From Nitrososphaera viennensis EN76 (GTDB lineage: Archaea; Thermoproteota; Nitrososphaeria; Nitrososphaerales; Nitrososphaeraceae): DNA of 32,000 nt. The DNA is taken from contig NZ_CP007536.1 of the NCBI RefSeq assembly GCF_000698785.1, positions 1,260,001 through 1,292,000 of the forward strand, written 5' to 3'. Positions 2,872 through 16,883 of the stretch are shown here, piece after piece. Under the pieces are notes generated by a model that saw nothing but the letters and a program-made list of their open reading frames with translations, made no database searches and was not told where the DNA came from. Position 1 is the stretch's first letter; every line of letters begins with the position of its first letter. The position numbers and the translations under genes are program-made.

Positions 2872-4395
2872 CTACCTCCCCACTGGCTCCATGTAGCCCT
2901 TCAGGTCCTCGCCCCTGACGACATCCTCTTCTGGTGGGACATATTCGATGACGCCGTGCCTCTGCTCCCCGGGGTATCTTTTCTGCGTCGCAAGCGCGAC
3001 TATGATAAACGCTGCAAACGATATGGGCGGAGGTATCATCGTGTCAAGGCCCGCGTACTCTGCAGGAATAGTCAGGAACAACAGGAGCCTGATGGCAGAG
3101 CCCACGATGAGCGACGTGATCGCAGCAGGCATGTTGGCCTTTTTCCAGAACAGCCCAAGTGTGAGCGGGGCCCAGGCGCCGGCAAACACGATGTCAAACG
3201 CAAGCACGAGGTAGATTCCCGGCTGCGGGAGCAGGTATCCGAGGATAAACGCCGCAACCATCATCGGTACCGTAAAGAGGCGCGTGGTCATGAGCAGTTT
3301 TTTGTCCTCCATGCCAGAACGTTTCAGCATCCTGCGCAGGATGTCGCGCTGGATGATGTTCCTTGACATGACCGATGATATCGCAAGGAGCCCGCCGTTG
3401 GCAGTAGACATCGACGCGCCAAGCACGCCCATCATGAGCGCGGCCCCTATCGGAAACGGCATGTGGTTTATCGCAAGCTCCGGGTAGGCCGTAAACGGAT
3501 CTGCGATGTTTGGAAGCACAAAGAGCGCGATTATGCCCATCATGCTGGTCGGGATGACCGTAAACAGGGTGAGGCCGGCGCCCATGAACGCGCCGCGCTG
3601 CGCCGTCCTGCCGTCCCTTGCCGCAAAAACCCGCTCCATAAAGTCCAGCGCCACGATGTCGCCGAGGCCAAGCGCCATTATGCTTGCCCAGTTGACGTAC
3701 GCGCCGTTTGCCGGGTCAGTGAGCCCTGACAAATCAAGGTACGCGGGCGGCGCGTTGCCAAGTATGGTGCCAAAGTCGACGCCGTAAAAACCGCCTGCAA
3801 AGAACAGGAACGCCGCCCAGAACGCGCCTATTGCAAGATATATCTGGAAAATGTCCGTATAGGCAGACGAAAAGAGGCCGCCTGCGTACGTGTAGACCAA
3901 GACTATTAGCGCGGCGATAAGCATGCCCCAGAAAAGGTCGATTCCAAAGACAGATTGCAGAATAAAGCCGCTTGCTGCAAAGTTGCCGGCGACAAGCACG
4001 ATGAAGCTTATCATCATGAGCACGCCTGAAATGCCTTCGGCGCCGTTGCCAAAGCGCCGGTAGTAAAAGTCAGGCAACGTCAAAAGAGCCATCTTGTTCA
4101 GCCTCTTGCCGTAAATGGTCCCTGTGAGTATGAGGCATATGCCCAAGCCTATCGGGATTGCGGCGCCGGCCCAGAATCCAAACTGGTACACCAAAGACAC
4201 GTTTCCAAGCGACGAGTTGCCATCGATTGACTGCGCGGCAAGCATCGTTCCCACAAAGAACAGAGGGAGACTTTTTCCGGCGACCATGTACCTCTTGCTA
4301 CTTTTCTTTACAAGCCTTGATGTCAGCGTGCCAACGACAAGCGACAGCACAAGGAATGCCGTAATAGCTATTCCAAACCCGTCCAGCCCAGCCAT
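2872..4395 (-). CDS. sodium:solute symporter (SSS/SSF) family transporter, putative urea transporter
   Basis: 507 aa, polytopic and very hydrophobic, with an SSF-like sequence. Thaumarchaeal urease loci are known to be accompanied by SSS-type (DUR3-like) urea transporters. The substrate is inferred from context only. Confidence 0.88.
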   Translation of the reverse strand: MAGLDGFGIAITAFLVLSLVVGTLTSRLVKKSSKRYMVAGKSLPLFFVGTMLAAQSIDGNSSLGNVSLVYQFGFWAGAAIPIGLGICLILTGTIYGKRLNKMALLTLPDFYYRRFGNGAEGISGVLMMISFIVLVAGNFAASGFILQSVFGIDLFWGMLIAALIVLVYTYAGGLFSSAYTDIFQIYLAIGAFWAAFLFFAGGFYGVDFGTILGNAPPAYLDLSGLTDPANGAYVNWASIMALGLGDIVALDFMERVFAARDGRTAQRGAFMGAGLTLFTVIPTSMMGIIALFVLPNIADPFTAYPELAINHMPFPIGAALMMGVLGASMSTANGGLLAISSVMSRNIIQRDILRRMLKRSGMEDKKLLMTTRLFTVPMMVAAFILGYLLPQPGIYLVLAFDIVFAGAWAPLTLGLFWKKANMPAAITSLIVGSAIRLLLFLTIPAEYAGLDTMIPPPISFAAFIIVALATQKRYPGEQRHGVIEYVPPEEDVVRGEDLKGYMEPVGR

Positions 4396-5791: not shown

Positions 5792-6940
5792 ATGGGAATG
5801 GAATTTTACGGTGATTCGTACAAGGGAAATGACGAGCCGATTTTTGTAGGCATACCAACCTTCCTAAAGCTGCCCTGGCTAAGGAGCAAGGCAGAGCTGG
5901 AAAAAGTCAGGCCGGACGTGGCCATCATAGGAGAGCCGTTCGACTTTGGCACCACCATCCGCCCGGGAGCAAGGTACGGCCCAAGGGCAATCCGCGCGGC
6001 CTCGACCGTCCCGTCCCCGCCGTACGAGCACTTTAACATAGAGACAGGCGTCGACCCGTTTGGCGTGTTCAGGACAGTCGACTATGGCGACGTCAACATA
6101 TCGCCCGGCGACGTGGTAGAGTCGCACAGGCGCATGACAGAGAAGGTGAAGGAGGTGCTTGACATCGACGGCATCCCGGTGATGCTTGGCGGAGATCATT
6201 CAATTACGTTTGCCAACGTGCGCGCCTTTGCAAAAAAATACAAGAACATCGGCATGATCCACATCGACACCCATGCCGACTGCGCGCCGCAGGGCCTGAC
6301 AGGCTTCAAGTACGACCACGGCGCCCACATCCGCAGGATAATGGAGCTTGGGTGCCTCAAGGGCAAGAACTACACCCTCATCGGCCCGAGGGGCTACTGG
6401 CCGGGGCCGGACCTCTACAAGTGGATGGCCGACCAGGACTTTCAGTGGTTCACTATGCTCGACGTTGAAGAACTTGGAATCGACAAGATAGCAAAAGAGG
6501 CAGCAGACAGGGCAAACGACAACGTCGACGCAGTCTACATCAGCTGGGACATTGACACGTTTGACCCCGCGTATGCGCCGGGAACAGGCGAGCCGGAGCC
6601 AAACGGCCTGACTTCCAGAGAAGGCATGCGCCTCATGCGCCTGCTTTCGACGTCATTTGACCCGGACAGGTTTGCGTTTGACCTTGTCGAAGTCGCGCCA
6701 AACTATGACGTAAGCGACGGAAGCTCGTACAATGGTGGCATCACGTCCGGCCTTGCCAACAGGCTCATTGTCGAGTTGCTTGCCGGCCTGTCGCTGACAA
6801 AGAAGGGCAAGACGGAAGGGACCCCGGTGAGGCCAAACCTCTACCGCGGAAAAGGCCACACGTACGACTTTGGCAACGGACCCAAGGCCAAGGTGCCAAA
6901 GAGGCCGCCCCTGAACTACGGCCCAAAGGTAAAGAGGTAG
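5792..6940 (+). CDS. arginase-family ureohydrolase (agmatinase-like) with a roughly 50-aa basic C-terminal extension
   Basis: 382 aa. All arginase-family metal-binding motifs are present: GGDHSIT, IHIDTHADC (DxHxD) and SWDIDTFDPAYAPGTG (SxDxDxxDP). The substrate (agmatine or another guanidino compound) cannot be told from the sequence. Confidence 0.9.
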   Translation: MGMEFYGDSYKGNDEPIFVGIPTFLKLPWLRSKAELEKVRPDVAIIGEPFDFGTTIRPGARYGPRAIRAASTVPSPPYEHFNIETGVDPFGVFRTVDYGDVNISPGDVVESHRRMTEKVKEVLDIDGIPVMLGGDHSITFANVRAFAKKYKNIGMIHIDTHADCAPQGLTGFKYDHGAHIRRIMELGCLKGKNYTLIGPRGYWPGPDLYKWMADQDFQWFTMLDVEELGIDKIAKEAADRANDNVDAVYISWDIDTFDPAYAPGTGEPEPNGLTSREGMRLMRLLSTSFDPDRFAFDLVEVAPNYDVSDGSSYNGGITSGLANRLIVELLAGLSLTKKGKTEGTPVRPNLYRGKGHTYDFGNGPKAKVPKRPPLNYGPKVKR

Positions 6941-6943
6941 CAG

Positions 6944-7339
6944 ATGATCTACATCAAGGCAGTTGCAAAGGGCGAGCCTGACGCGGCCCCCCTTGCCAAA
7001 TTTTTTCAGTACATCGATTCTACGGACGAAGTCATCCTGCAGCATTCGATAGAGATGGTAAAGGACAAGATTGACAAAAACCTGAAGCTGAACGTAAACG
7101 AGGCATTTTTGCTGTACGCGTATTTTGTTGCAAACCAGATGCGCGCCAAGAAGAAGGCGGCCGAGATCGAAAAGGACGCCAAGTCGCTCCTTTCGCCAGG
7201 CCAAGTCATGATAGGCGTCCCGGAAACTTTGAGGATTGTCACGTTTGACGCCATAGTTGACGGGAAAAGGGAATGGGTGACTTTGCAAGAGCCCATGTCC
7301 GTGTCAAGCTACGTAATGGCAGCCAATCATCAAGGCTAA
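6944..7339 (+). CDS. urease gamma subunit (UreA)-like paralog with N- and C-terminal extensions
   Basis: 131 aa, with the ATG 3 nt after the ureohydrolase stop. A hand alignment to the ureA product in this window gives about 23 identities over about 71 positions. Examples are LKLN-EA, LLSPGQVMIGVPE against [13 protein letters not shown], and DG..VT..P. Confidence 0.75.
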   Translation: MIYIKAVAKGEPDAAPLAKFFQYIDSTDEVILQHSIEMVKDKIDKNLKLNVNEAFLLYAYFVANQMRAKKKAAEIEKDAKSLLSPGQVMIGVPETLRIVTFDAIVDGKREWVTLQEPMSVSSYVMAANHQG

Positions 7340-7348
7340 TAATAATTC

Positions 7349-8242
7349 TCAGTGCGCGTGCCTGTGATCCTTTTCATGCGCGTGTGCGTGTACGTGCACC
7401 ACCACCCCATGTGAGTGCATGTGGTACTTTTTGCGCAGAAACGAGTACAGCGCAGATATGCCAAATGCGGCCGCTCCAAACAGCACAATCGTAGCGCCTG
7501 ACGCTGAGTCGAGGAAAAAGCTGGAATACATGCCGGCAAAGGCAGTAGCCGCGCCTATCGCGGTAGAAAGTGCAAGCATCTTTTGAAAGTTGTTTGTCAG
7601 CATCCTTGCAGAGATGGCCGGCGCAACTATGGCGGCCGCAAGCAAGGTCACGCCTATTGCAGACATTGACGCGATCACGACCGTGGCAAGGATGAACGAA
7701 AACGCCAGCTCCACTGTTTCCACCCGGATTCCATAGACCCGGGCCGTGTCCTTATCAAAGAGCGTAAAGAGCAGGCGCTTGTGGAAGAACGTGATGAACA
7801 GCGCCGTTGCGGCAGTGGCTATTGCTATCATGGCCACATCCTGGCCGGTTATCCCAAGTATGTTGCCAAAGAGTATCGATTCAAAGTCGCGTGTAAAGCT
7901 CCGGGTGGTGCTTATCAAGAGCACGCCGACTGCAAAGCCGGCTGTGGTGACGACGCCTATCGCCGCGTCGGCCTTGATCTTGCTCCTGCGGCTTATCTCG
8001 TTTATCGCAAACGCCGAGAGGAACCCCCACAGGGCGGCCCCAATGTACATGTTAAAGCTCAGGATATAGCTCACGACGGCGCCGCCAAACACCGCGTGCG
8101 ACATGCCATGCCCGATGTAGCTCATGCCGCGCAGGATTATGTAGACCCCAAGGAGCCCGCAGGAGCCCCCGACCATTATGGCGACCAGTATCCCCCGCGT
8201 GAAAAACTCGTATTGGAACGGCTGCAGCAGAAGGTCCATCAT
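7349..8242 (-). CDS. metal ABC transporter permease (ABC-3, ZnuB/TroC/MntB-like) with a His-rich C-terminal tail
   Basis: The track ORF extends to 8362, but that part overlaps the ATPase gene. ATG at 8242 (MMDLLLQPF...) lies 2 nt after the ATPase stop. The protein is polytopic. Its last 24 residues, HMHSHGVVVHVHAHAHEKDHRHAH, contain 10 His. Confidence 0.85.
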   Translation of the reverse strand: MMDLLLQPFQYEFFTRGILVAIMVGGSCGLLGVYIILRGMSYIGHGMSHAVFGGAVVSYILSFNMYIGAALWGFLSAFAINEISRRSKIKADAAIGVVTTAGFAVGVLLISTTRSFTRDFESILFGNILGITGQDVAMIAIATAATALFITFFHKRLLFTLFDKDTARVYGIRVETVELAFSFILATVVIASMSAIGVTLLAAAIVAPAISARMLTNNFQKMLALSTAIGAATAFAGMYSSFFLDSASGATIVLFGAAAFGISALYSFLRKKYHMHSHGVVVHVHAHAHEKDHRHAH

Positions 8243-8244
8243 CG

Positions 8245-8976
8245 TCAGCGTCCCCCCTCCGTGTCCACCACCAGCCCGTAGGTTGCAAGCAGGTTTTCGT
8301 TGGTCAGTATGTCGGCGGGCCGCCCCTGCGATATTATGCGCCTGTTCATGCACACGACCCACGGGAGCCGGCGCGCCACGCCCGAAATGTCGTGCGTGGT
8401 GAGGATCACCGTGACGCCCTTTTGGTTCAGCTCGCCAAGCACGCCAAGTATCGCCTCCCGGGTGGCGTGGTCGACGCCGGAGGTCGGCTCGTCAAGCACG
8501 AGTACGTCAGGGGAGCGGATCATCGCCCTTGCAAGAAAGACGCGCTGCTGCTCGCCCCCGGAAAGCTCGCTTATCTGCCGCGACGCGTAATCGCCTATGC
8601 CGAGGCTTTCAAGTACGCGCATTATCGCCTCGCCGGCGGCGCTTCCTATCCACGGGCCCCTGCCCGAGCTATTCCACACGCCCATCGACACGACCTCCTT
8701 GACGGTGACCGGGAAATTCCAGTCAACGCTTTCCACCTGCGGCACGTACCCTATTTTGCGCCCCCTTTCTAGGTCCACAGAGCCGTGCCACGGCTTGACA
8801 AGGCCGGCTATCACCTTCAAAAGCGTAGTCTTGCCCGAGCCGCTTGGCCCCAGGATGCCGACAAAGCTCCCTGCGGCTATGCTCAGGTTGACGCCCTCTA
8901 TCACCGGCCGGTTGTAAGAGTAGCCGTAGGTTACTTCCCCGAGCGTGACTGCGCCGGCCGCCTTCATTCCTGTCAC
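8245..8976 (-). CDS. metal ABC transporter ATP-binding protein (ZnuC/TroB-like)
   Basis: Walker A GPSGSGKTT, ABC signature LSGGEQQR and Walker B VLVLDEPTSGVD. The start overlaps the upstream SBP stop (ATGA). Confidence 0.92.
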   Translation of the reverse strand: MTGMKAAGAVTLGEVTYGYSYNRPVIEGVNLSIAAGSFVGILGPSGSGKTTLLKVIAGLVKPWHGSVDLERGRKIGYVPQVESVDWNFPVTVKEVVSMGVWNSSGRGPWIGSAAGEAIMRVLESLGIGDYASRQISELSGGEQQRVFLARAMIRSPDVLVLDEPTSGVDHATREAILGVLGELNQKGVTVILTTHDISGVARRLPWVVCMNRRIISQGRPADILTNENLLATYGLVVDTEGGR

Positions 8977-9995
8977 AAATCCCCCGTATACGTATCAGCA
9001 GGATCTATGTCTGAAAGCGCGTCGACGTTTCCGCCAAGTGGGACTATCATGTTGCGCATGTTTTCAAGCATCATGCCAACGTAGGTGTGTCCGGGCTCGC
9101 CGGCGTTGCCCGGCAGCGCGTCGTCCCGCAGCGTTTCTACGACCTGGACGTTGGCTTCCTTTGCTATCTGGTCGACCACCTTGCTCTGGAACACCTCGGA
9201 AGCAAATATTGCCGGCACTTTTTCCTGGCGTATCTGGTCGATTATGCTTGCCACCTCCTGCGGAGTCGGCTCGCCAAAGTCTGACGGCTGCACTGCCCCT
9301 ATCACCTTCATGCCGTAGCGGGGCGCAAAATAGGCCCACGAGTCGTGGTACGTGAGAAGCTTGCGTTGCTCGGCAGGGATCGTCTGTACAGACGCCATGA
9401 TGCCCTGGTCAAGCCTCTGGAGCAGCGCAAGGTACCTGTCCGCGTTGGCCCTGTAATAGTCTGCATTGCCAGGGTCCATCTCCACCAGCTTGTCGCGCAC
9501 AAGCTGCGCGTACTTTATGGCGTGGGCGACGTTGAGCCACAGGTGCGGGTTAGGATCGCCGCCCTCTTCAGGGAAGCTAAAGTCAAAGACCCACTGGTCG
9601 CGGGTTATGGTGCTGTCCGCCAGCCTCAAAATCTGGAGGTCTGGCTTGCCGGCAGCTTGTGCCACCCTTTCGATGTCGGTCTCCAGATGGAGGCCGTTTA
9701 TGATGACGAGGTCGGCTTTTCCGACGGCGATCGAGTCTGAGGGCGCAAGCTCAAAAGTATGGGAATTCACGCCTTCCGGCACAAGGCCGGTGAGCTGTAT
9801 CCTGTCGCCTCCAACATTTCTGACGATGTTTGTTATCGGCGCCACAGACGTGACAACTGCCAGCTTTTCGCTCTCCACGCTGGCAGGGGTAGGGACAGGG
9901 TTTGCGCCCGCAGACATGGCGGCCACCCCAATTATCGCCGCCACGACCACAATGGCCGCAATTATCCCTATTGCTTTAGCGTTTGCCAACTGCAA
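8973..9995 (-). CDS. metal-binding ABC substrate-binding protein (cluster A-I, TroA/ZnuA/PsaA family), membrane-anchored
   Basis: 340 aa with a TTG start and an N-terminal hydrophobic anchor. Family-typical ligand contexts are NSHTFE, NPHLWL, YHDSWAYF and LRDDALP. Metal specificity cannot be determined from the sequence. Confidence 0.88.
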   Translation of the reverse strand: MQLANAKAIGIIAAIVVVAAIIGVAAMSAGANPVPTPASVESEKLAVVTSVAPITNIVRNVGGDRIQLTGLVPEGVNSHTFELAPSDSIAVGKADLVIINGLHLETDIERVAQAAGKPDLQILRLADSTITRDQWVFDFSFPEEGGDPNPHLWLNVAHAIKYAQLVRDKLVEMDPGNADYYRANADRYLALLQRLDQGIMASVQTIPAEQRKLLTYHDSWAYFAPRYGMKVIGAVQPSDFGEPTPQEVASIIDQIRQEKVPAIFASEVFQSKVVDQIAKEANVQVVETLRDDALPGNAGEPGHTYVGMMLENMRNMIVPLGGNVDALSDIDPADTYTGDL

Positions 9996-10013
9996 ACGCC
10001 TCCACAGAAACTA

Positions 10014-10041
10014 GTATTACTGTATTGTATTTGCGTAATAC
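10014..10041. promoter_or_regulatory. NikR-operator-like palindrome GTATTAC-N14-GTAATAC (site A)
   Basis: Perfect 7-bp inverted repeat read directly. It is centred 32.5 nt upstream of the ABC operon start (9995). Confidence 0.5.
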
Positions 10042-10095
10042 CATATTCATCCCAACTGTTGCGCGAGGTAAGATAAAAAGTTTCTACAATTATCA

Positions 10096-10104
10096 GTAAA
10101 CTAC
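10096..10104 (-). promoter_or_regulatory. GTAGWTTAC motif copy (reads GTAGTTTAC on the minus strand)
   Basis: Exact 9-mer, about 105 nt upstream of the ABC operon start and in the same orientation as the operon. Confidence 0.3.
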
Positions 10105-10246
10105 CCAAGTTCACTTGGAAACGAATGTGTAGAATACACAACAGGATTCTGCCGACATCGGCTAAATACTCGCACTGAAAAACAGACGATTTGTGTGGAA
10201 GGGCGGCAAGCACGATATGGATTCTGGAAACAATAATGCAAAAAAC

Positions 10247-10403
10247 TACACTGTTAAGTTGGCTGCGCATTTTGCCCTTTTTATTCGGATGTTAAGTTAC
10301 GGATGGTTTTTTGGCATGGTGAACACCTGTACGTCGCACAATATCACCCGCAAGTTAACGCCTGGCAGAAAAGATGGAAATCAGCAGCCAACTTAACAGT
10401 GTA
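10247..10403. mobile_element. MITE-like non-autonomous element (157 bp) with 20-bp perfect terminal inverted repeats and an 8-bp flanking duplication
   Basis: TIR TACACTGTTAAGTTGGCTGC at 10247..10266 has its exact reverse complement at 10384..10403. CAAAAAAC lies immediately outside both ends (10239..10246 and 10404..10411). There is no ORF inside. Confidence 0.55.
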
Positions 10404-10525
10404 CAAAAAACGGTACTGTTAACTTATCGTTGGCTACACTTCCACTTCATAATTTTATTAGTAGATGATAAGTTAACGTACCAATTACCGACATATTTTT
10501 TAGGAACGCAAGCCTATGTCAACTA

Positions 10526-10553
10526 GTATTACTTTACTTGAAATAAGTAATAC
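10526..10553. promoter_or_regulatory. NikR-operator-like palindrome GTATTAC-N14-GTAATAC (site B)
   Basis: Perfect 7-bp inverted repeat. It shares the 13-mer AACTAGTATTACT with site A and is centred 37.5 nt upstream of ATG 10577. Confidence 0.5.
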
Positions 10554-10576
10554 GAAAAGAGAATGTATGGAAATTG

Positions 10577-10789
10577 ATGCTCGACAAAAGCAAAAAGGCT
10601 ATCCGTGTCCTGATAATAATCATCGCGTCGATCACGCTGATTGTAATGGTATTTGGATATATTTCTACACAACATAACGTCTTGATAAGAGGTACCAATT
10701 CGCCAACAAGTGCTCCTACTAAACTCTGTGATAGCATACTATCTCTTCCATGCTTCGACAACCAGTCTCGTCAACAGTATAGAAGATGA
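10577..10789 (+). CDS. candidate small membrane protein (70 aa)
   Basis: Track ORF (TTG 10574 or ATG 10577) with one clear hydrophobic helix (AIRVLIIIIASITLIVMVFGYI). Support comes mainly from operator-like site B lying at the same distance as in the other sites. The region is AT-rich, so it could be spurious. Confidence 0.3.
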   Translation: MLDKSKKAIRVLIIIIASITLIVMVFGYISTQHNVLIRGTNSPTSAPTKLCDSILSLPCFDNQSRQQYRR

Positions 10790-10959
10790 CCTTCAACTCA
10801 TTTTCTTGCCTTCAGACGAACCTAGGTGTACGGTAGAGCCTGTGCGTGTCCATGTGTGTATTATATGCGATCATCCGGAAGATAGAAAAATCGAAAACGA
10901 ATAGTATGCTACTCTATGCTACAACACATTATCACACGTATCTAACAATACATGTGTCT

Positions 10960-11370
10960 CTACTTATCTTGGAAGGAGCGGCGAAATCCATTCATCGTGG
11001 AACTTCTTGTAGTCTTTGTATAGGCAGGCGAATGAAACGAAGGATCTTTCAGAGAACTAAAATCATATACTTCGTAGGATTGAATAATATCTCCAAACAG
11101 GTTTCTGCAGATGTCACTCTCTTCATCGGCTATTTCCTCTGATTCAAACGACTGAATAGATATCCAATCATATCTACCTTTTGTGCGCCCAGAAAACAAC
11201 ACAAAAGGAGCATCAACAAGGTATTTTTTCAAACTTTCGATCCTCATCGGAAGATGTTGCGATGTTCTAAATATTATAAGAACAACCCGTATTACGTGTT
11301 TTCGAATTTCCTTTCTCCTTTTTGCGGGCTCCGCCACCATATCGACAAAAATGTCTTTGCTGTCTCCCAT
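10960..11370 (-). CDS. hypothetical protein (136 aa)
   Basis: Longest ORF in the AT-rich islet, with an ATG start. Operator-like site C is centred 37.5 nt upstream. No family recognised. Confidence 0.45.
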   Translation of the reverse strand: MGDSKDIFVDMVAEPAKRRKEIRKHVIRVVLIIFRTSQHLPMRIESLKKYLVDAPFVLFSGRTKGRYDWISIQSFESEEIADEESDICRNLFGDIIQSYEVYDFSSLKDPSFHSPAYTKTTRSSTMNGFRRSFQDK

Positions 11371-11391
11371 TATGACAAGAAGGATTATTTG

Positions 11392-11423
11392 TAGTAATAA
11401 GTTTTACCATAAAAGTATTACTA
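11392..11423. promoter_or_regulatory. NikR-operator-like palindrome TAGTAATA-N16-TATTACTA (site C)
   Basis: Perfect 8-bp inverted repeat. It has the same 28-bp core geometry as sites A, B and D (GTAATAa-N14-GTATTAC at 11394..11421). Confidence 0.45.
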
Positions 11424-11558
11424 GATATAAAGTGTAAAAAGATCAGAGGATCACCCGAGCATATCTATGCCAGCAAGTAGCATTTCACAATGCATCAATC
11501 AACATAAAATGTCAAAATGTGAAGCCTTATCGGTGCCCAAACCATGTGTTTTGTCGTT

Positions 11559-12005
11559 TCAGACAACCGAGACAAAATGCACTTTCAGGCTTTTTATCCC
11601 GCGGTTTTCAGACAGCTTTTTGGCAAGCTCCTTTATCCGCCTTATTTCTCCCTTCACCATCACCGTCTCGAGGCAGTTGTCGTGGTCAAGGTGCAGATGG
11701 GTCGAGGCGCTGATGATATCGCTGTAGTGGTGCTGTACGTGCGTAGACTCTGAATCGTGGTTGTACGCATGGTTGTCGTACAGCATCATTATCGCGCCTG
11801 CGCCGTTGCGGCTGTCTTCGCCCTTGTCCCAGTCATACTGGGCTATAAACGAGTGCAGAGCAGTCTGTATGGCCTTGGACCTGTCTGAAAAACCGGCGCT
11901 CTTCATAGACTTGTCAAATTCCGACAGCAGGTCTGGCGAGAGGGACATGCTGATGCGCTCGACTGGCTCTTTTTTCCGGTGCTTGTGCGAATGGCGCTTT
12001 GACAA
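11559..12005 (-). CDS. nikR: nickel-responsive transcriptional regulator NikR
   Basis: 148 aa. The RHH N-domain (ERISMSLSPDLLSEFDK...RSKAIQTAL) is followed by a C-terminal metal-binding domain, HVQHHYSDIISASTHLHLDHDNCLE. That matches the E. coli NikR His/His/His/Cys ligand region (QHHHH...LHVHINHDDCLE). TTG at 12005 is the only start that keeps the RHH strand, and it adds a His-rich N-terminus (KRHSHKHRKK). Confidence 0.9.
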   Translation of the reverse strand: MSKRHSHKHRKKEPVERISMSLSPDLLSEFDKSMKSAGFSDRSKAIQTALHSFIAQYDWDKGEDSRNGAGAIMMLYDNHAYNHDSESTHVQHHYSDIISASTHLHLDHDNCLETVMVKGEIRRIKELAKKLSENRGIKSLKVHFVSVV

Positions 12006-12047: not shown

Positions 12048-12077
12048 AGTAATACTTTTTAGCTAAAATTTATTACT
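12048..12077. promoter_or_regulatory. NikR-operator-like palindrome AGTAATA-N16-TATTACT (site D)
   Basis: Perfect 7-bp inverted repeat in the nikR upstream region. It is centred 57.5 nt from the nikR TTG and 36.5 nt from the divergent ATG at 12099. Confidence 0.5.
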
Positions 12078-12098: not shown

Positions 12099-12266
12099 AT
12101 GACACTTGAACCGGTTATTGTCAAGCTTGCCAGAAGAAGAAAAGAGATCGCACGGATGGGCATGTATAGAGACGAAAAGTACGTGTTTTCCAAGGCGCCC
12201 GACTCTGATCCTGTAGGGCTTCTTCTGAAAGAGGCTAGAAAGAATATTCTTCCTTCTTCTTCCTAA
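12099..12266 (+). CDS. candidate small protein (55 aa), divergent from nikR
   Basis: Below the track cutoff and translated by hand: MTLEPVIVKLARRRKEIARMGMYRDEKYVFSKAPDSDPVGLLLKEARKNILPSSSS*. GC rises at its start. Site D sits at the same distance from its ATG as sites B and C do from theirs. The 3' end overlaps the thermosome stop by 4 nt. Confidence 0.3.
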   Translation: MTLEPVIVKLARRRKEIARMGMYRDEKYVFSKAPDSDPVGLLLKEARKNILPSSS

Positions 12267-13978
12267 TAGTAGTGGTGCATGGGGCGCTGCTGCTTGCCCA
12301 GCTTGTCAAAGTGGTCGTGCACCTGCTTGCCGCCGCGGTGCGAATGAGTCGTGCCGTCAGAGTGAGTGTGGGTATAGTAGGCAGGCTTGGCCATCACCAC
12401 ATCATCGACGCGCAAGAGCAGGTCGGCAACTTCGGCTGCTGCAGTCATCACCTGCTCCTTGACTGCAAGTGGCTCTATGACGCCAAGCGCAAGCATGTCC
12501 TGCACCCTGCGCTCCAGCGCGTTTATGCCGCACCAGCCGCCTCCCTTTCCTTTTTCCTTGGTGCCGGCAGCGCGCAGCTGCGCCTGCACGTCAATGACAT
12601 CCATGCCGGCGTTTGCCGCAATTGTCAGCGGGATCTCTTCAAGCGCGTCTGCAAACTTTAGGATCGCAAGCTGCTCCCTGCCCTCCACTGTCAGGGCGCT
12701 TTCCCTCACTGCCCTTGCGGCAAGGGCCTCTGCGGCGCCTCCACCTGCAACCACGGACGGGCTTGCGACAAAGTCGCGCAGAACGTTCAGTGCGTCAAGG
12801 ATGGAGCGGTGGAACTCGTCAAGAACCTTGGCAGAGCCGGCGCGCAGGAGTATTGTGACAGAGCGCGGGTTTCTGCATTCTTCCACAAAGACCATCCTGT
12901 CATCGCCCACAAACCTTTCGCAGACTCTGCCAGCGTAGCCAAGGTCAGACTGTGAAATGCTGTCAAGGTCTCTTGTTATTTTTGCGCCCGTGGCTTTTTC
13001 CAGCCACCACAGGTCGTTTTCCTTTACCCTGCGCACAGACATGATGCCGGCATGCGCAAGCATGGTCTGCGCAAGCGTGTTGATGCCTCCGCGCGATATC
13101 ACGACGTTTGCGCCCGAGTCGATTATGGTCTGCACCTTTCGTCGCAGCTCAAAGGCCTGCTCGTCAAGGTACGCCCTGATCTGCGCAGGGAGCGTGATCC
13201 CGATCTCCGCGTCGGCGCGCGTGTTCTTTTTGCTGTCAAGGTCATAGTCGATGAGCAGGATTTTTGCATTGTCAATTGACTTGGGCATCGACGAGCTGTC
13301 GACAGTCTTGTCGATGACGATGCCGGCGACAAGCTGCGTGTCTTGTACGCTGCCGGGCTTTTGCTCCATCTTGACGTCGTCGATTTCCAGCCTGCCGGAT
13401 GCAGGATCGGAAACAACTGCCATTACTGCGTCAACCACCAGCCTTGCGATGCGCTCCTTTTCCATGCAGGACGAAATCGCCTTTGACTCCAGGCACGTCG
13501 TGGCGAGGCGCTCCATCGTCTTTCTGTCAGAATTATTTGCGTGCTTTATCGCGTGCGACAAGAGGGCGTCCATCGCGGTGGCAAGGGCCCGGCGGTAGCC
13601 GTCAGAGATGGTTGCAGGGAGAACGCCAAGCTCGAGAAGCTCCTCTGCCCTTGCCACAAGGGCGCCCGCAAGGACAACCACAGAAGTGGTGCCGTCGCCC
13701 ACCGCGTTGTCGACTGCGGTTGAAGCCTCGATGAGCACCTTTGCCGCCGGGTGCTCGACGTCAATCTTGCGCAGGAGCGTCGCGCCGTCCTTTGTCAGCG
13801 TCACCTCTCCCATGATGTCGACGAACACCTTGTCCATGCCCCGGGGACCAAGCAGCCCCTTGACCATCTCTGAGATGAGCCTGGCCGCAAGCATGTTGTA
13901 CCTGCGCGCTTCGCCCCCGCTCGTCCTTTTTACTCCTTCGCCAAACAGCTCTTGGCCTTTTGGCTGCGCGGCCATCAT
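12263..13978 (-). CDS. ths: thermosome subunit (group II chaperonin, Cpn60/TCP-1 family) with an atypical His-rich C-terminal tail
   Basis: 571 aa. Hallmark motifs are LGPRGMDK, GDGTTS, VAGGGAAE and IDVEHPAAK. The last 38 aa, YYTHTHSDGTTHSHRGGKQVHDHFDKLGKQQRPMHHYY, contain 8 His in place of the usual Gly/Met-rich tail. Confidence 0.95.
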   Translation of the reverse strand: MMAAQPKGQELFGEGVKRTSGGEARRYNMLAARLISEMVKGLLGPRGMDKVFVDIMGEVTLTKDGATLLRKIDVEHPAAKVLIEASTAVDNAVGDGTTSVVVLAGALVARAEELLELGVLPATISDGYRRALATAMDALLSHAIKHANNSDRKTMERLATTCLESKAISSCMEKERIARLVVDAVMAVVSDPASGRLEIDDVKMEQKPGSVQDTQLVAGIVIDKTVDSSSMPKSIDNAKILLIDYDLDSKKNTRADAEIGITLPAQIRAYLDEQAFELRRKVQTIIDSGANVVISRGGINTLAQTMLAHAGIMSVRRVKENDLWWLEKATGAKITRDLDSISQSDLGYAGRVCERFVGDDRMVFVEECRNPRSVTILLRAGSAKVLDEFHRSILDALNVLRDFVASPSVVAGGGAAEALAARAVRESALTVEGREQLAILKFADALEEIPLTIAANAGMDVIDVQAQLRAAGTKEKGKGGGWCGINALERRVQDMLALGVIEPLAVKEQVMTAAAEVADLLLRVDDVVMAKPAYYTHTHSDGTTHSHRGGKQVHDHFDKLGKQQRPMHHYY

Positions 13979-14124
13979 CTAACGCACAAGCCTCCTTCGC
14001 AGTCACTTGATCGGGCGGCAAAACCAAGTGATGACGGCATATATGCCTAGGATGTGGCTCTCCTTTGTATTTATGCAGTTCTCGCCGGTCTGTATAATAC
14101 GAAACCGTGTGCGCAAACGCGCAA

Positions 14125-14133
14125 GTAGTTTAC
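14125..14133 (+). promoter_or_regulatory. GTAGWTTAC motif copy (GTAGTTTACGCAT)
   Basis: Exact 9-mer centred about 55 nt upstream of the ureA ATG, just upstream of the TATA-like CATAAATAC. Confidence 0.4.
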
Positions 14134-14183
14134 GCATAGCATGGCACCAATCATAAATACAGGGCCCATAATTTGTAAATGAA

Positions 14184-14486
14184 ATGATGCTTGCTCCACG
14201 GGAGATAGACAAGCTGTACATTTTCATGGCCGCAGAGGTGGCGCGAAAAAGGCGTGCAAGGGGACTAAAGCTGAACTACCCAGAGGCGGTGGCGCTCATT
14301 TGCGACCACATTGTAGAAGGGGCACGCGACGGCAGGTCGGTGCCAGAGCTTATGAGCTCCGGCAGGCAGGTGCTTTCAAGGAGCGACGTCCTCCCCGGAG
14401 TGCCAGAGCTTGTCAAACAGGTGCAGGTAGAAGCGACGTTTGAGGATGGCACGAAACTTGTGACAGTGCACAACCCCATAGTGTGA
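14184..14486 (+). CDS. ureA: urease subunit gamma
   Basis: 100 aa with a canonical UreA sequence ([12 protein letters not shown]...[12 protein letters not shown]). Confidence 0.97.
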
Positions 14487-14495
14487 TCCCTCGAC

Positions 14496-14861
14496 ATGAT
14501 ACCGGGCGAGTATTTCATTGCTTCAGACAAGCCGGTGACGGCAAATTCCGGCAGGAAAACGACGGGAATCAAGGTGACCAACACGGGCAACAGGCCGGTG
14601 CAGGTAGGCTCGCATACGCACTTTTTTGAGGTCAATAAGGCGCTTTTGTTCCCGCGGGAAAAGGCGTACGGCTTTCACCTGAACATCCCGTCGGGAACTT
14701 CGCTGCGCTTTGAGCCCGGCGACACGCGGCAAGTCGAGCTGGTAGAGTACGGCGGCAGGAAAACAGTGTACGGATTTTCCGGCCTTGTTAACGGCAAGCT
14801 GTCAATGAAAAAGAGGCAAGCGCTTGCAAAGGCAAAGGCAAGGGGGTTTGCGGGCGCTTGA
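14496..14861 (+). CDS. ureB: urease subunit beta
   Basis: 121 aa with a canonical UreB N-terminus (MIPGEY...[19 protein letters not shown]). Confidence 0.97.
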
Positions 14862-16573
14862 CGCTTGAAATCCCGCGCAGGCAGTACGTCGACCTCTACG
14901 GCCCGACCAAGGGCGATAGGGTGAGGCTAGCAGACACTGACCTGATAATAGAGGTAGAAAAGGATCTGCTTTCGCATGGCGACGAGCTGGTGTTTGGAGG
15001 CGGCAAGAGCGTCCGCGACGGAGCAGGCCAGACAGGCGGCGTGACAAGCAGCAGGCAGGCACTTGACCTTGTCATAACAAACGCGATAGTGATGGACCCG
15101 GTGCTAGGGATAGTCAAGGCCGACATCGGGATAAAGGACGGCAGGATAGCTGGAATTGGCAAGGCTGGAAACCCGGATGTCATGGACAAGGTCGACATGA
15201 TAGTGTCATCAAGCACAGAGGTCATAGCCGGCGAGCATACGATATGCACGCCCGGGACCATTGACACGCACATCCACTTCATCTCGCCCCAGCAGGCGGT
15301 AGAGGCGATATGCACCGGCACGACCACAATGATAGGAGGTGGGACGGGCCCGACTGATGGCACGAACGCGACGACGTGCACGCCGGGGCCCTGGAACATC
15401 CACAGGATGCTTGAAGCCCTTGACGAGCTCCCGCTGAACTTTGGGCTGCTCGGCAAGGGAAACGACTCGCGCGAGCCGGCCCTCATCGAGCAGATTGCGG
15501 CAGGCGCCTGCGGGCTGAAGCTCCACGAAGACTGGGGCTCCACGCCGGCTGCGATAGACGCCGCGCTCAGAGTAGCAGACAAGACCGACACGCAAGTGGC
15601 GATACATACGGACACGCTCAACGAGTGCGGCTTTGTCGATGACACGATTGAAGCGATAGCAGGGCGTACCATCCACACGTACCACACGGAAGGTGCCGGT
15701 GGGGGACACGCGCCGGACATTTTAAAGATCGCCGGCGAGAACAACATCCTGCCGTCTTCGACAAATCCTACGAAGCCGTTTACTGTAAACACGCTGGAGG
15801 AGCACCTTGACATGATGATGGTGTGCCACCACCTGAGCCCCTCCATCCCGGAGGACGTGGCGTTTGCCGAATCGCGAATACGCGCAGAAACGATTGCTGC
15901 GGAGGACGTGCTGCACGACATTGGCGCGCTTTCCATGTACTCGTCAGACAGCCAGGCGATGGGAAGGGTGGGCGAAGTGACCACGAGGGCGTGGCAGACT
16001 GCAGACAAGATGAAAAAGATGGCCGGCAGGCTAAAGGGCGAAAAGGGCGACAACGACAACCTGCGCGCAAAGAGATACCTGGCAAAGCTCACGATAAACC
16101 CGGCCATCACGCACGGCATCTCTGCCTACGTCGGCTCGCTTGAAAAAGGCAAGATAGCGGACATTGTCATCTGGACGCCGCAGTTCTTTGGAGTCAAGCC
16201 AAAGATGGTGGTAAAGGGAGGGTTCATAGCGTACTCGCTGATGGGCGACCCAAACGCGTCCATACCGACGCCCGAGCCGGTGTACTACAGGCCGATGTTC
16301 GGGTCGATGGGCGCTGCAAAATACTCTACGTCGTTCACGTTCACGTCAAAGCTTGCAGTCAGAAACGGCGTCGGGAAAAAGCTGGGACTAAGGAAAAAGC
16401 TGCTGCCCGTGAAAAACTGCCGCAGGATTGGCAAGCGGAACATGCTGTACAACGACCTTGCGCCAAAGATAGACGTCGACCCGGAGACGTACGAGGTCAA
16501 GGTGGACGGCAAGGTGGCGACAAGCGAGCCGGCAAAGAGCCTCTCGATGGCTAGGCTCTACAACCTGTTCTAG
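14858..16573 (+). CDS. ureC: urease subunit alpha
   Basis: 571 aa. The TTG start overlaps the ureB stop (TTGA). Active-site motifs are [17 protein letters not shown] (carbamylated Lys), [27 protein letters not shown] and SSDSQAMGR. Confidence 0.97.
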
Positions 16574-16628: not shown

Positions 16629-16883
16629 ATGACTCCTGTAAGGAATCAAAAAGACGTCGAAAAAGCAGCAAGCCGCGCTATCGAGGCCCTCTACGGGCCG
16701 GAGATCAAGGACCTGAGGATAAGGGTGCTATTGCCGTTCCCAAACGAGCATAAACAGGAGGGCTGGGACGCAAACGTCACTTTCCTGCTGAAAGGCAAGC
16801 AGTACACGGTCGACCTCCTGATAAACCAGGACGACGGCCAGATAACAAACGCAAGGCTCATCGACACGATGACGCCTCTCTAA
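16629..16883 (+). CDS. small hypothetical protein (84 aa) downstream of ureC
   Basis: Track ORF with an ATG start, its own promoter-like element and an oligo-T after the stop. No family recognised. Confidence 0.6.
   Translation: MTPVRNQKDVEKAASRAIEALYGPEIKDLRIRVLLPFPNEHKQEGWDANVTFLLKGKQYTVDLLINQDDGQITNARLIDTMTPL

Follow-up and report, generated by a model that had tools for sequence, protein, structure and literature searches.

We analysed 32,000 nucleotides of the genome of Nitrososphaera viennensis EN76 (contig NZ_CP007536.1, positions 1,260,001 to 1,292,000 of the forward strand), a stretch that is called the window in the following. It encodes a paralog of the group II chaperonin (thermosome) which carries a sharply conserved histidine motif at its C-terminus and whose gene lies beside the genes of a nickel enzyme, urease. 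The motif on a group II chaperonin together with this neighbourhood is new; an Hsp60 in the urease loci of ammonia-oxidising archaea and the idea of histidine-tailed chaperonins are already known. Judging by the sequences, the family of the window protein is a good candidate for a metal-handling chaperonin. With about even confidence we propose a specialised chaperonin whose histidine layer binds divalent metal and aids the folding or assembly of urease, perhaps also of an arginase-type enzyme. The gene and the elements of its tail are:

12263..13978, minus strand: histidine-tailed group II chaperonin (thermosome) paralog, 571 aa, Pfam Cpn60_TCP1
12266..12391, minus strand: conserved C-terminal module AKP..THTHxDGTxHSHxGGxKxHDHFDxLGKxQRPxHHYY, residues 530-571
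12338..12370, minus strand: four-histidine unit HTHSDGTTHSH (HxHxDGxxHxH), residues 537-547

The open reading frame (ORF) translates into 571 residues with no internal stops. The Cpn60_TCP1 profile is matched over its whole length (residues 35-532, profile positions 1-490 of 490, E 1.5e-150, Pfam) and both chaperonin ATPase motifs are present, GDGTTS at residues 94-99 and VAGGGAAE at residues 410-417. This bears out a previous reading of the same DNA, made from the sequence alone, which had described a full-length chaperonin with intact ATPase motifs. The residues G94, D95, G96, T97, D387, E388, G412-G414 and E417 are invariant across 28 family members, and the protein can be aligned with the canonical thermosome. 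In the segment that corresponds to the helical protrusion of the apical domain, the built-in lid of group II chaperonins, the alignment has a single gap of one residue. AlphaFold modelled the chaperonin core well and placed a helix at residues 264-287, with a predicted local distance difference test (pLDDT) score <50 at 252-258. With the NCBIfam model thermosome_alpha NF041082 the protein passes the cutoff of 450 (568 bits), but with 561.7 bits it stays under that of TIGR02339 (671.1). GroEL models reach 80-102 bits, far under their cutoffs, such that the protein does not belong to the group I fold. By its motifs the gene encodes a catalytically intact group II chaperonin subunit. Its orthologue in Ca. 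Nitrososphaera evergladensis SR1 is 90% identical, and the synteny is kept.

The histidine tail

The last 38 residues of the chaperonin (12266..12379) are YYTHTHSDGTTHSHRGGKQVHDHFDKLGKQQRPMHHYY and contain 8 histidines. At the overall histidine frequency of the protein, the probability of finding 8 or more in 38 residues is ~1.5e-6. The sequence-only reading had reported these 38 residues and 8 histidines as a replacement of the usual Gly/Met-rich tail, and this was confirmed: canonical thermosomes from this family of organisms end with ...ILRIDDVIAASKSGGPPGGGMPPGGMGGMGEM or ...GGMPPGGMGGMGEM, where the window protein has the histidine module instead.

That reading did not contain the point that the tail is strictly conserved as a family-wide motif. 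Among the 120 best homologues, every sequence that is complete carries it with hardly any change, even at an overall identity as low as 56%, and the complete homologues that were read all come from ammonia-oxidising archaea. In its full-family form the module reads AKP..THTHxDGTxHSHxGGxKxHDH(Y)FDxLGKxQRPxHHYY-COOH and comprises 42-46 residues. The 110 tails that could be anchored keep to this length with one exception of 51 residues, follow the consensus AKPVMYTHTHADGTTHSHAGGDKKHDHYFDRLGKQQRPMHHYY and hold at least 8 histidines each (median 8). The unit HxHxDGxxHxH is found in 107 of them, while H[DEKQ]H, GKxQR and HHY[YF]-COOH each occur in all 110. Residues H537, H539, D541, G542, T543, H545, H547, H554, D555, H556, H568, Y570 and Y571 are invariant.

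To follow the tail beyond annotated proteins, a DNA pattern back-translated from its last 15 residues was run on species genomes. At least 120 of these matched, and all matches listed belong to the Nitrososphaeria (Nitrososphaera, Nitrosocosmicus, other Nitrososphaeraceae, Nitrosotalea and Nitrosopumilaceae). Marine genus labels were carried by 0 of the 120 sampled loci among these matches, which is suggestive at most. When genomes of 30-59% GC are compared, amino-acid identity over the 15 terminal codons is 88%, and only 44% of the codons for identical residues are the same. Since the residues are kept while the codons are scrambled, the tail is under purifying selection as a protein. The scrambled codons and the position-wise conservation also rule out that the tail is chance low complexity.

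A phmmer search with the tail alone against 1.84 billion representatives returned C-terminal fragments of thermosomes and one animal-type protein, and nothing else. Other prokaryotic proteins thus do not carry the tail as a mobile module. It has no Pfam match and no PDB match. AlphaFold predicts, at low confidence, two short strands (534-538 and 544-548) that form a weak hairpin at the HxH...HxH unit.

Two side observations concern sequences resembling the tail. The animal-type protein (P0126, 2392 residues, with fn3 and TIL domains) contains ~20 tandem FTHTHEDGTTHSHPGGHLPHTHDD repeats, which correspond to the HxHxDGTxHxH unit; presumably the likeness to the archaeal tail is convergent. In a metagenome-assembled genome (MAG) of the Nitrosopumilaceae (locus L090, ~6640-6742), a 33-codon ORF encodes the tail end alone (MPDGTTHTHAEDQKKHDHFDNLGKQQRPSHHYY) directly after a frameshifted ureC. 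This is either what is left of a thermosome gene after its deletion or an artefact of the assembly.

A paralog family beside the canonical thermosomes

Scanning metagenomes with a profile that lacked the tail gave 80 loci. The complete histidine tail was present in 71 of them, 4 genes leave their contig before the gene end, and 5 have canonical tails. These five canonical-tailed proteins are 48-49% identical and have ends such as ...ILRIDDVIAASKSGGPPGGGMPPGGMGGMGEM; for one, an exact look-up returned thermosome subunit beta of a Nitrososphaeraceae archaeon. Both types of tail were met on a single Nitrososphaerales contig (contig_39884, 403,978 bp), where a canonical thermosome ending in GGM lies at 371 kb, with the genes for ribosomal protein S19e, EMG1, IMPDH and SMC as neighbours, and a histidine-tailed one (locus L024) at 311 kb. 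The GGM-tailed thermosomes of the Nitrososphaeraceae exclude that all thermosomes of ammonia-oxidising archaea carry the histidine tail.

The separation of the two groups is seen in scores and trees. Canonical Nitrososphaeraceae thermosomes reach 758-770 bits with TIGR02339 (cutoff 671), compared to 460-562 bits for ten histidine-tailed members from across the family. In neighbour-joining trees (472 columns, rooted on the canonical proteins) the histidine-tailed sequences group together as a single clade, which has a long stem. Identities are 38-49% between histidine-tailed and canonical proteins, 58% on average within the histidine-tailed group and 71-86% within the canonical one. By these measures the histidine-tailed family split from the canonical thermosome and evolves faster. 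Among the sequences found, it is restricted to ammonia-oxidising archaea.

In N. evergladensis seven thermosome-like genes are listed. A GGM paralog in the window's own genome is inferred from relatives. The view of the window gene as a specialised paralog rather than as the sole housekeeping thermosome was supported, with GGM-tailed proteins in the Nitrososphaeraceae, one of them sharing its contig with a histidine-tailed gene. None of 123 fetched loci contained a second thermosome gene. A homologue search with P0075, aimed at a named non-ureolytic isolate such as Nitrosopumilus maritimus, returned soil-type sequences only.

Within the genus Nitrososphaera the family comprises three sister paralog clades, which we call the operon type, the orf84 type and the window type after their gene contexts (see below). 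The window copy is the youngest of the three. It was further observed that paralogs of the operon and orf84 types carry in a loop of the apical domain an extra insertion of 25-58 residues, which is rich in His and Asp and contains 11-23 histidines. It is seen in L030, L035, L047, L072, L082 and others and aligns to window residues 333-350; the window paralog is without it.

Urease, arginase and nickel genes around the family

On the far side of a short spacer from the chaperonin gene, the window encodes the three urease subunits and a small protein:

13979..14183, no strand: divergent thermosome-ureA spacer, 205 bp, with identical blocks >40 bp in three species
14184..14486, plus strand: ureA (urease gamma), Pfam Urease_gamma E 2e-46
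14496..14861, plus strand: ureB (urease beta), Pfam Urease_beta E 2e-41
14858..16573, plus strand: ureC (urease alpha), Pfam Urease_alpha and Amidohydro_1
16629..16883, plus strand: orf84 (84 aa), from the context tables, with 22 invariant residues in 30 homologues

The divergent intergenic region of 205 bp was found as previously described. Its identical blocks of >40 bp (e.g. GTTTCGTATTATAC...GAGAACTGCATAAATAC) are shared by the window, N. evergladensis and Nitrososphaera sp. FF02, and the thermosome gene is likewise divergent from ureABC in the latter two. Such conservation is compatible with a divergent promoter or regulatory region that both genes share. A tblastn search with archaeal queries detected no UreD, UreE, UreF or UreG in the window, in agreement with the sequence-only reading. 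Both N. evergladensis and N. viennensis have been described to possess an extra ureABC set beside the main urease cluster (Abby et al. 2018, PMC5797428), and the ureABC of the window matches this extra, accessory-less set. The gene order in N. evergladensis is orf84-ureCBA, the divergent chaperonin, nikR, NicO, UreA-like and arginase.

The protein of orf84 has no family match. AlphaFold models it with a pLDDT of 88 as one helix and four strands in a cystatin/PepSY-like arrangement; a fold search gave this generic topology at E >0.04 with no significant PDB match. A homologue search aimed at marine loci yielded 133 hypothetical proteins, all of Nitrososphaeraceae type. The gene always follows ureC or, where ureABC is absent, lies directly divergent from the thermosome gene. 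Two further genes of the window may be mentioned here. A gene of the sodium:solute symporter (SSS) family (2872-4395) lies near the urease genes, in a synteny shared with N. evergladensis, and may be the urea transporter of SSS type to which the literature refers. The window also encodes a eukaryote-type topoisomerase IB.

We then sorted 120 species-genome loci and 75 metagenome loci of the family by their neighbours. All counts for species genomes refer to loci among the matches listed.

Upstream, species-genome loci: 80 informative, with urease genes in 41, orf84 in 29, other genes in 10
Upstream, metagenome loci: 68 informative, with urease genes in 40, orf84 in 21, other genes in 7
Downstream, convergent arginase-family/UreA-like pair: 80/101 species-genome loci and 54/61 metagenome loci
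5792..7339, plus strand: this pair in the window, an arginase-family gene (5792-6940, Pfam Arginase E 2e-80) and a 131-aa UreA-like gene (6944-7339, Urease_gamma E 5e-11)

Over both sets of loci listed, urease genes are directly upstream in 81/148, orf84 is upstream in another 50/148, and the arginase-family/UreA-like pair is downstream in 134/162. The linkage to urease takes two forms, in which the thermosome gene is either divergent from ureA or the last gene of ureE-F-G-D. In the latter, operon form it is co-directional and starts 75-90 bp after ureD, with ureABC-orf84 divergent. This arrangement was found at all informative loci labelled Nitrosopumilaceae or Nitrosotalea (10/10), and also at loci of the same clade labelled only Thaumarchaeota and in one Nitrososphaera clade. 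The sequence-only reading had proposed a chaperonin dedicated to urease. The tie of the family to urease genes (81/148 loci listed) supports this in part, while "dedicated" is too strong a word, as orf84 replaces urease in about one third of the loci and the window-type orthologues L006, L008 and L114 lack ureABC.

The loci without urease are one reason to consider an auxiliary or stress thermosome with general clients. Its tail would be a lineage-specific replacement of GGM, e.g. an assembly or partner-binding motif, and its position at urease inherited synteny. We regard this as unlikely. It would account for the upstream orf84 at 29/80 and 21/68 loci and for close orthologues without ureABC, and in its conservation the tail is closer to an interaction motif than to a stretch for storage. 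In addition, the downstream genes pdaD, dhs and the arginase family resemble housekeeping genes for polyamines and hypusine, and the N. viennensis thermosome transcript goes up under general energy stress. However, a canonical GGM thermosome already serves housekeeping in the same genome, as seen in a relative, and the co-directional position 75-90 bp after ureD at all informative Nitrosopumilaceae loci listed is hard to explain as chance synteny. The His/Asp-rich insertion of the sister paralogs also points to selection for metal-binding residues.

The most constant neighbour of the family is not urease but the arginase-family/UreA-like pair, which is present in all three Nitrososphaera paralog contexts and is downstream at 71/72 of the Nitrososphaeraceae-labelled loci. 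As a side observation, the pair was duplicated together with the histidine-tailed thermosomes. Given its constancy, the main client may be not urease but the enzyme of the arginase family together with its UreA-like partner, which would be a binuclear metallohydrolase that produces urea. Such a client is quite improbable in our view: the pair is convergent with the thermosome gene and not co-transcribed, in the Nitrosopumilaceae it is usually replaced by pdaD/dhs while the link to the ure operon stays, and in the window an insertion of nikR and transporter genes separates it from the thermosome gene.

This insertion comprises the genes and sites of the nickel and metal context:

7349..9995, minus strand: ZnuABC-type metal ABC transporter, Pfam ZnuA, ABC_tran and ABC-3, with binding protein 8973-9995, ATPase 8245-8976 and permease 7349-8362 with a His-rich C-terminus
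10015..10040, no strand: TATTAC-N14-GTAATA site just upstream of the ZnuA-like gene
10527-10552: further candidate NikR operator site
11394..11421, no strand: second GTAATA-N16-TATTAC site, upstream of orf136
11559..12005, minus strand: nikR, Pfam NikR_C E 1e-25, NCBIfam NF002169 125 bits, above the cutoff of 111
12049..12076, no strand: candidate NikR operator GTAATA-N16-TATTAC, upstream of nikR

The gene downstream of the chaperonin gene is thus indeed nikR, as had been read from the sequence. The motif GTAATA-N16-TATTAC occurs 2 times in the window, compared to 0.01 expected occurrences, and its spacing is that of the E. coli NikR operator. These motifs are putative NikR operators. In N. 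evergladensis a site of the same type precedes nikR and the inverse TATTAC-N14-GTAATA precedes NicO; the latter form is also found before nicO in L044 and L056, two loci of Nitrosopumilaceae type. The nickel context that had been suggested for the locus is hence supported by NikR, by the candidate operators and by NicO at the orthologous locus in N. evergladensis. Control of the thermosome gene itself by NikR was rejected, as its upstream region is empty of the candidate operator. Since the operators precede nikR and the transporter but not the thermosome gene, the locus is a nickel-homeostasis neighbourhood in which the chaperonin does not resemble a member of the putative NikR regulon.

The ZnuABC-type transporter holds the position that NicO has in the N. 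evergladensis locus, and its permease ends with HMHSHGVVVHVHAHAHEKDHRHAH. AT-rich DNA (10000-11500, GC 0.39-0.44) flanks the transporter (7349-9995), which suggests a replacement or insertion; the transporter may be nickel-regulated. Behind a candidate NikR operator lies orf136 (10960-11370), which encodes 136 residues with no family match. Paralogous copies of orf136 are found upstream of the thermosome gene in L006, L008 and L114.

The transporter type also bears on which metal the tail would hold. Rather than serving urease, the tail may buffer or sense another metal such as copper or zinc, much as has been suggested for mycobacterial GroEL1 and its His-rich tail. Besides Ni2+, HxH clusters also bind Cu2+ and Zn2+, the window encodes a ZnuABC-type transporter next to the chaperonin, and proposals of metal-related roles exist for the His-rich tails of GroEL1 (PMC5904260). 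We nevertheless give this idea little credence: the flanking regulator is NikR, the orthologous locus has NicO, the family is linked to a nickel enzyme, and none of the consistent neighbours is a copper or zinc enzyme.

Proposed role and known systems

Thermosome structures have established that group II chaperonins direct their C-termini into the central cavity at the level of the equator. Because they project into the cavity, a complex of 16 subunits would place ~128 histidines on the chamber floor. We propose that this histidine layer would bind divalent metal, most likely Ni2+, and that the metal-loaded or metal-buffered cage would fold or assemble apo-urease, with its 60-kDa TIM-barrel subunit UreC, and perhaps also the neighbouring arginase-type hydrolase. 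The chaperonin would work alongside UreDEFG and not in their place. The window copy is attached to the second, accessory-less ureABC set and to the insertion of nikR and the metal transporter. A more specific version, in which the HxHxDGTxHxH...HDH...HHYY module makes a metal-loaded cage and nickel on the floor is delivered to, or kept from, the folding urease (perhaps the arginase-type hydrolase), is tentative and in our judgement somewhat unlikely.

A metal theme is common to several observations in favour of a metal-binding chaperonin that aids urease: the His/Asp insertions of the sister paralogs, NikR and its candidate operators, NicO or an ABC transporter next door, and the repetition of the histidine unit in the animal-type protein. 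Other observations weigh against it. About one third of the loci have orf84 instead of urease genes beside the thermosome gene. Among the five informative window-type members ureABC is found only in the window and in FF02, while the other three (L006, which is 91% identical, L008 and L114) lack adjacent ureABC and have an orf136-like gene upstream. Neither form of the operator motif occurs in the thermosome-ureA spacer (13979-14183). AlphaFold leaves tail residues 543-571 at a pLDDT <50. Furthermore, UreE, HypB and HspA have variable His stretches, which the tail with its strict conservation does not resemble, and the tail could equally serve a protein-protein contact. Finally, the urease loci of marine ureolytic Nitrosopumilales are reported to be without the chaperonin (PMC5797428).

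In fertilised soils nitrification draws on ureolysis, with archaea of the Nitrososphaera type as major players. If the family aids urease maturation or nickel handling, it would be a missing component of archaeal urease activation and could explain the poor heterologous expression of these ureases. As a metal-loaded cage of the more specific kind above, it would provide the first metallochaperone function that is built into a thermosome, and with it an unrecognised urease accessory factor in soil ammonia oxidisers. Among group II chaperonins it would also be the first case in which a defined metal-binding motif has taken over from the usual tail, a counterpart to the long-debated His-rich tails of actinobacterial GroEL1. 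With a short, sharply defined motif and a GGM paralog in the same cell as natural control, the question is directly testable. In the literature searched we found no description of a His-rich or nickel-linked thermosome tail.

The closest known system is the urease-locus Hsp60 of ammonia-oxidising archaea, a published finding that the sequence-only reading had not included. An Hsp60 homolog is conserved in the urease loci of Nitrososphaerales and Nitrosocaldus, for which a stabilisation of urease was proposed (Abby et al. 2018, PMC5797428). The hadal MAG MTA1 has an extra, distinct thermosome beside urease, where marine ammonia-oxidising archaea typically have two thermosomes (Zhong et al. 2020, PMC7265257). 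This is the same family, a thermosome-like gene in or beside the urease locus that is distinct from the conserved thermosome. The roles proposed in these papers are urease stabilisation or pressure adaptation only (PMC5797428, PMC7265257), and Abby et al. 2018 (PMC5797428) make no mention of nickel. While Abby et al. reported the family as absent from Nitrosopumilales, we found it in ure operons of Nitrosopumilaceae and Nitrosotalea MAGs. The window paralog furthermore differs from the published accounts in being attached to the extra, accessory-less ureABC and to nikR.

Of the functional analogues, actinobacterial GroEL1 and Helicobacter pylori HspA come closest. GroEL1 (Cpn60.1) is similar in that a His-rich tail replaces GGM, a more conserved GGM-tailed paralog co-exists, and the branches are longer (PMC11978752, PMC5904260). 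A pairing of this kind, of a histidine tail with a GGM paralog, is found here on one contig of a relative (contig_39884). GroEL1 is, however, a bacterial group I chaperonin with a short, variable His run, whereas the window family belongs to group II, has a long motif that is conserved position by position and is linked to urease.

Helicobacter pylori HspA is a GroES with a Ni-binding His/Cys C-terminus, and HspB is associated with urease. Group II chaperonins work without GroES. The HspA extension sits on the co-chaperonin lid, in contrast to the window tail on the cage subunit, and the two have no sequence relationship. What they share is a chaperonin system with a metal-binding extension tied to urease, an analogy that was cited by Abby et al. 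(PMC5797428).

UreE, HypB and SlyD likewise have His-rich C-terminal or internal stretches and are encoded beside nickel-enzyme genes; the His/Asp insertion of the sister paralogs is similar to these stretches in composition, while the thermosome tail has no homology to them. As the urease operons of ammonia-oxidising archaea already encode UreE (UreE_N and UreE_C), the thermosome would be an addition to UreE and not a substitute for it.

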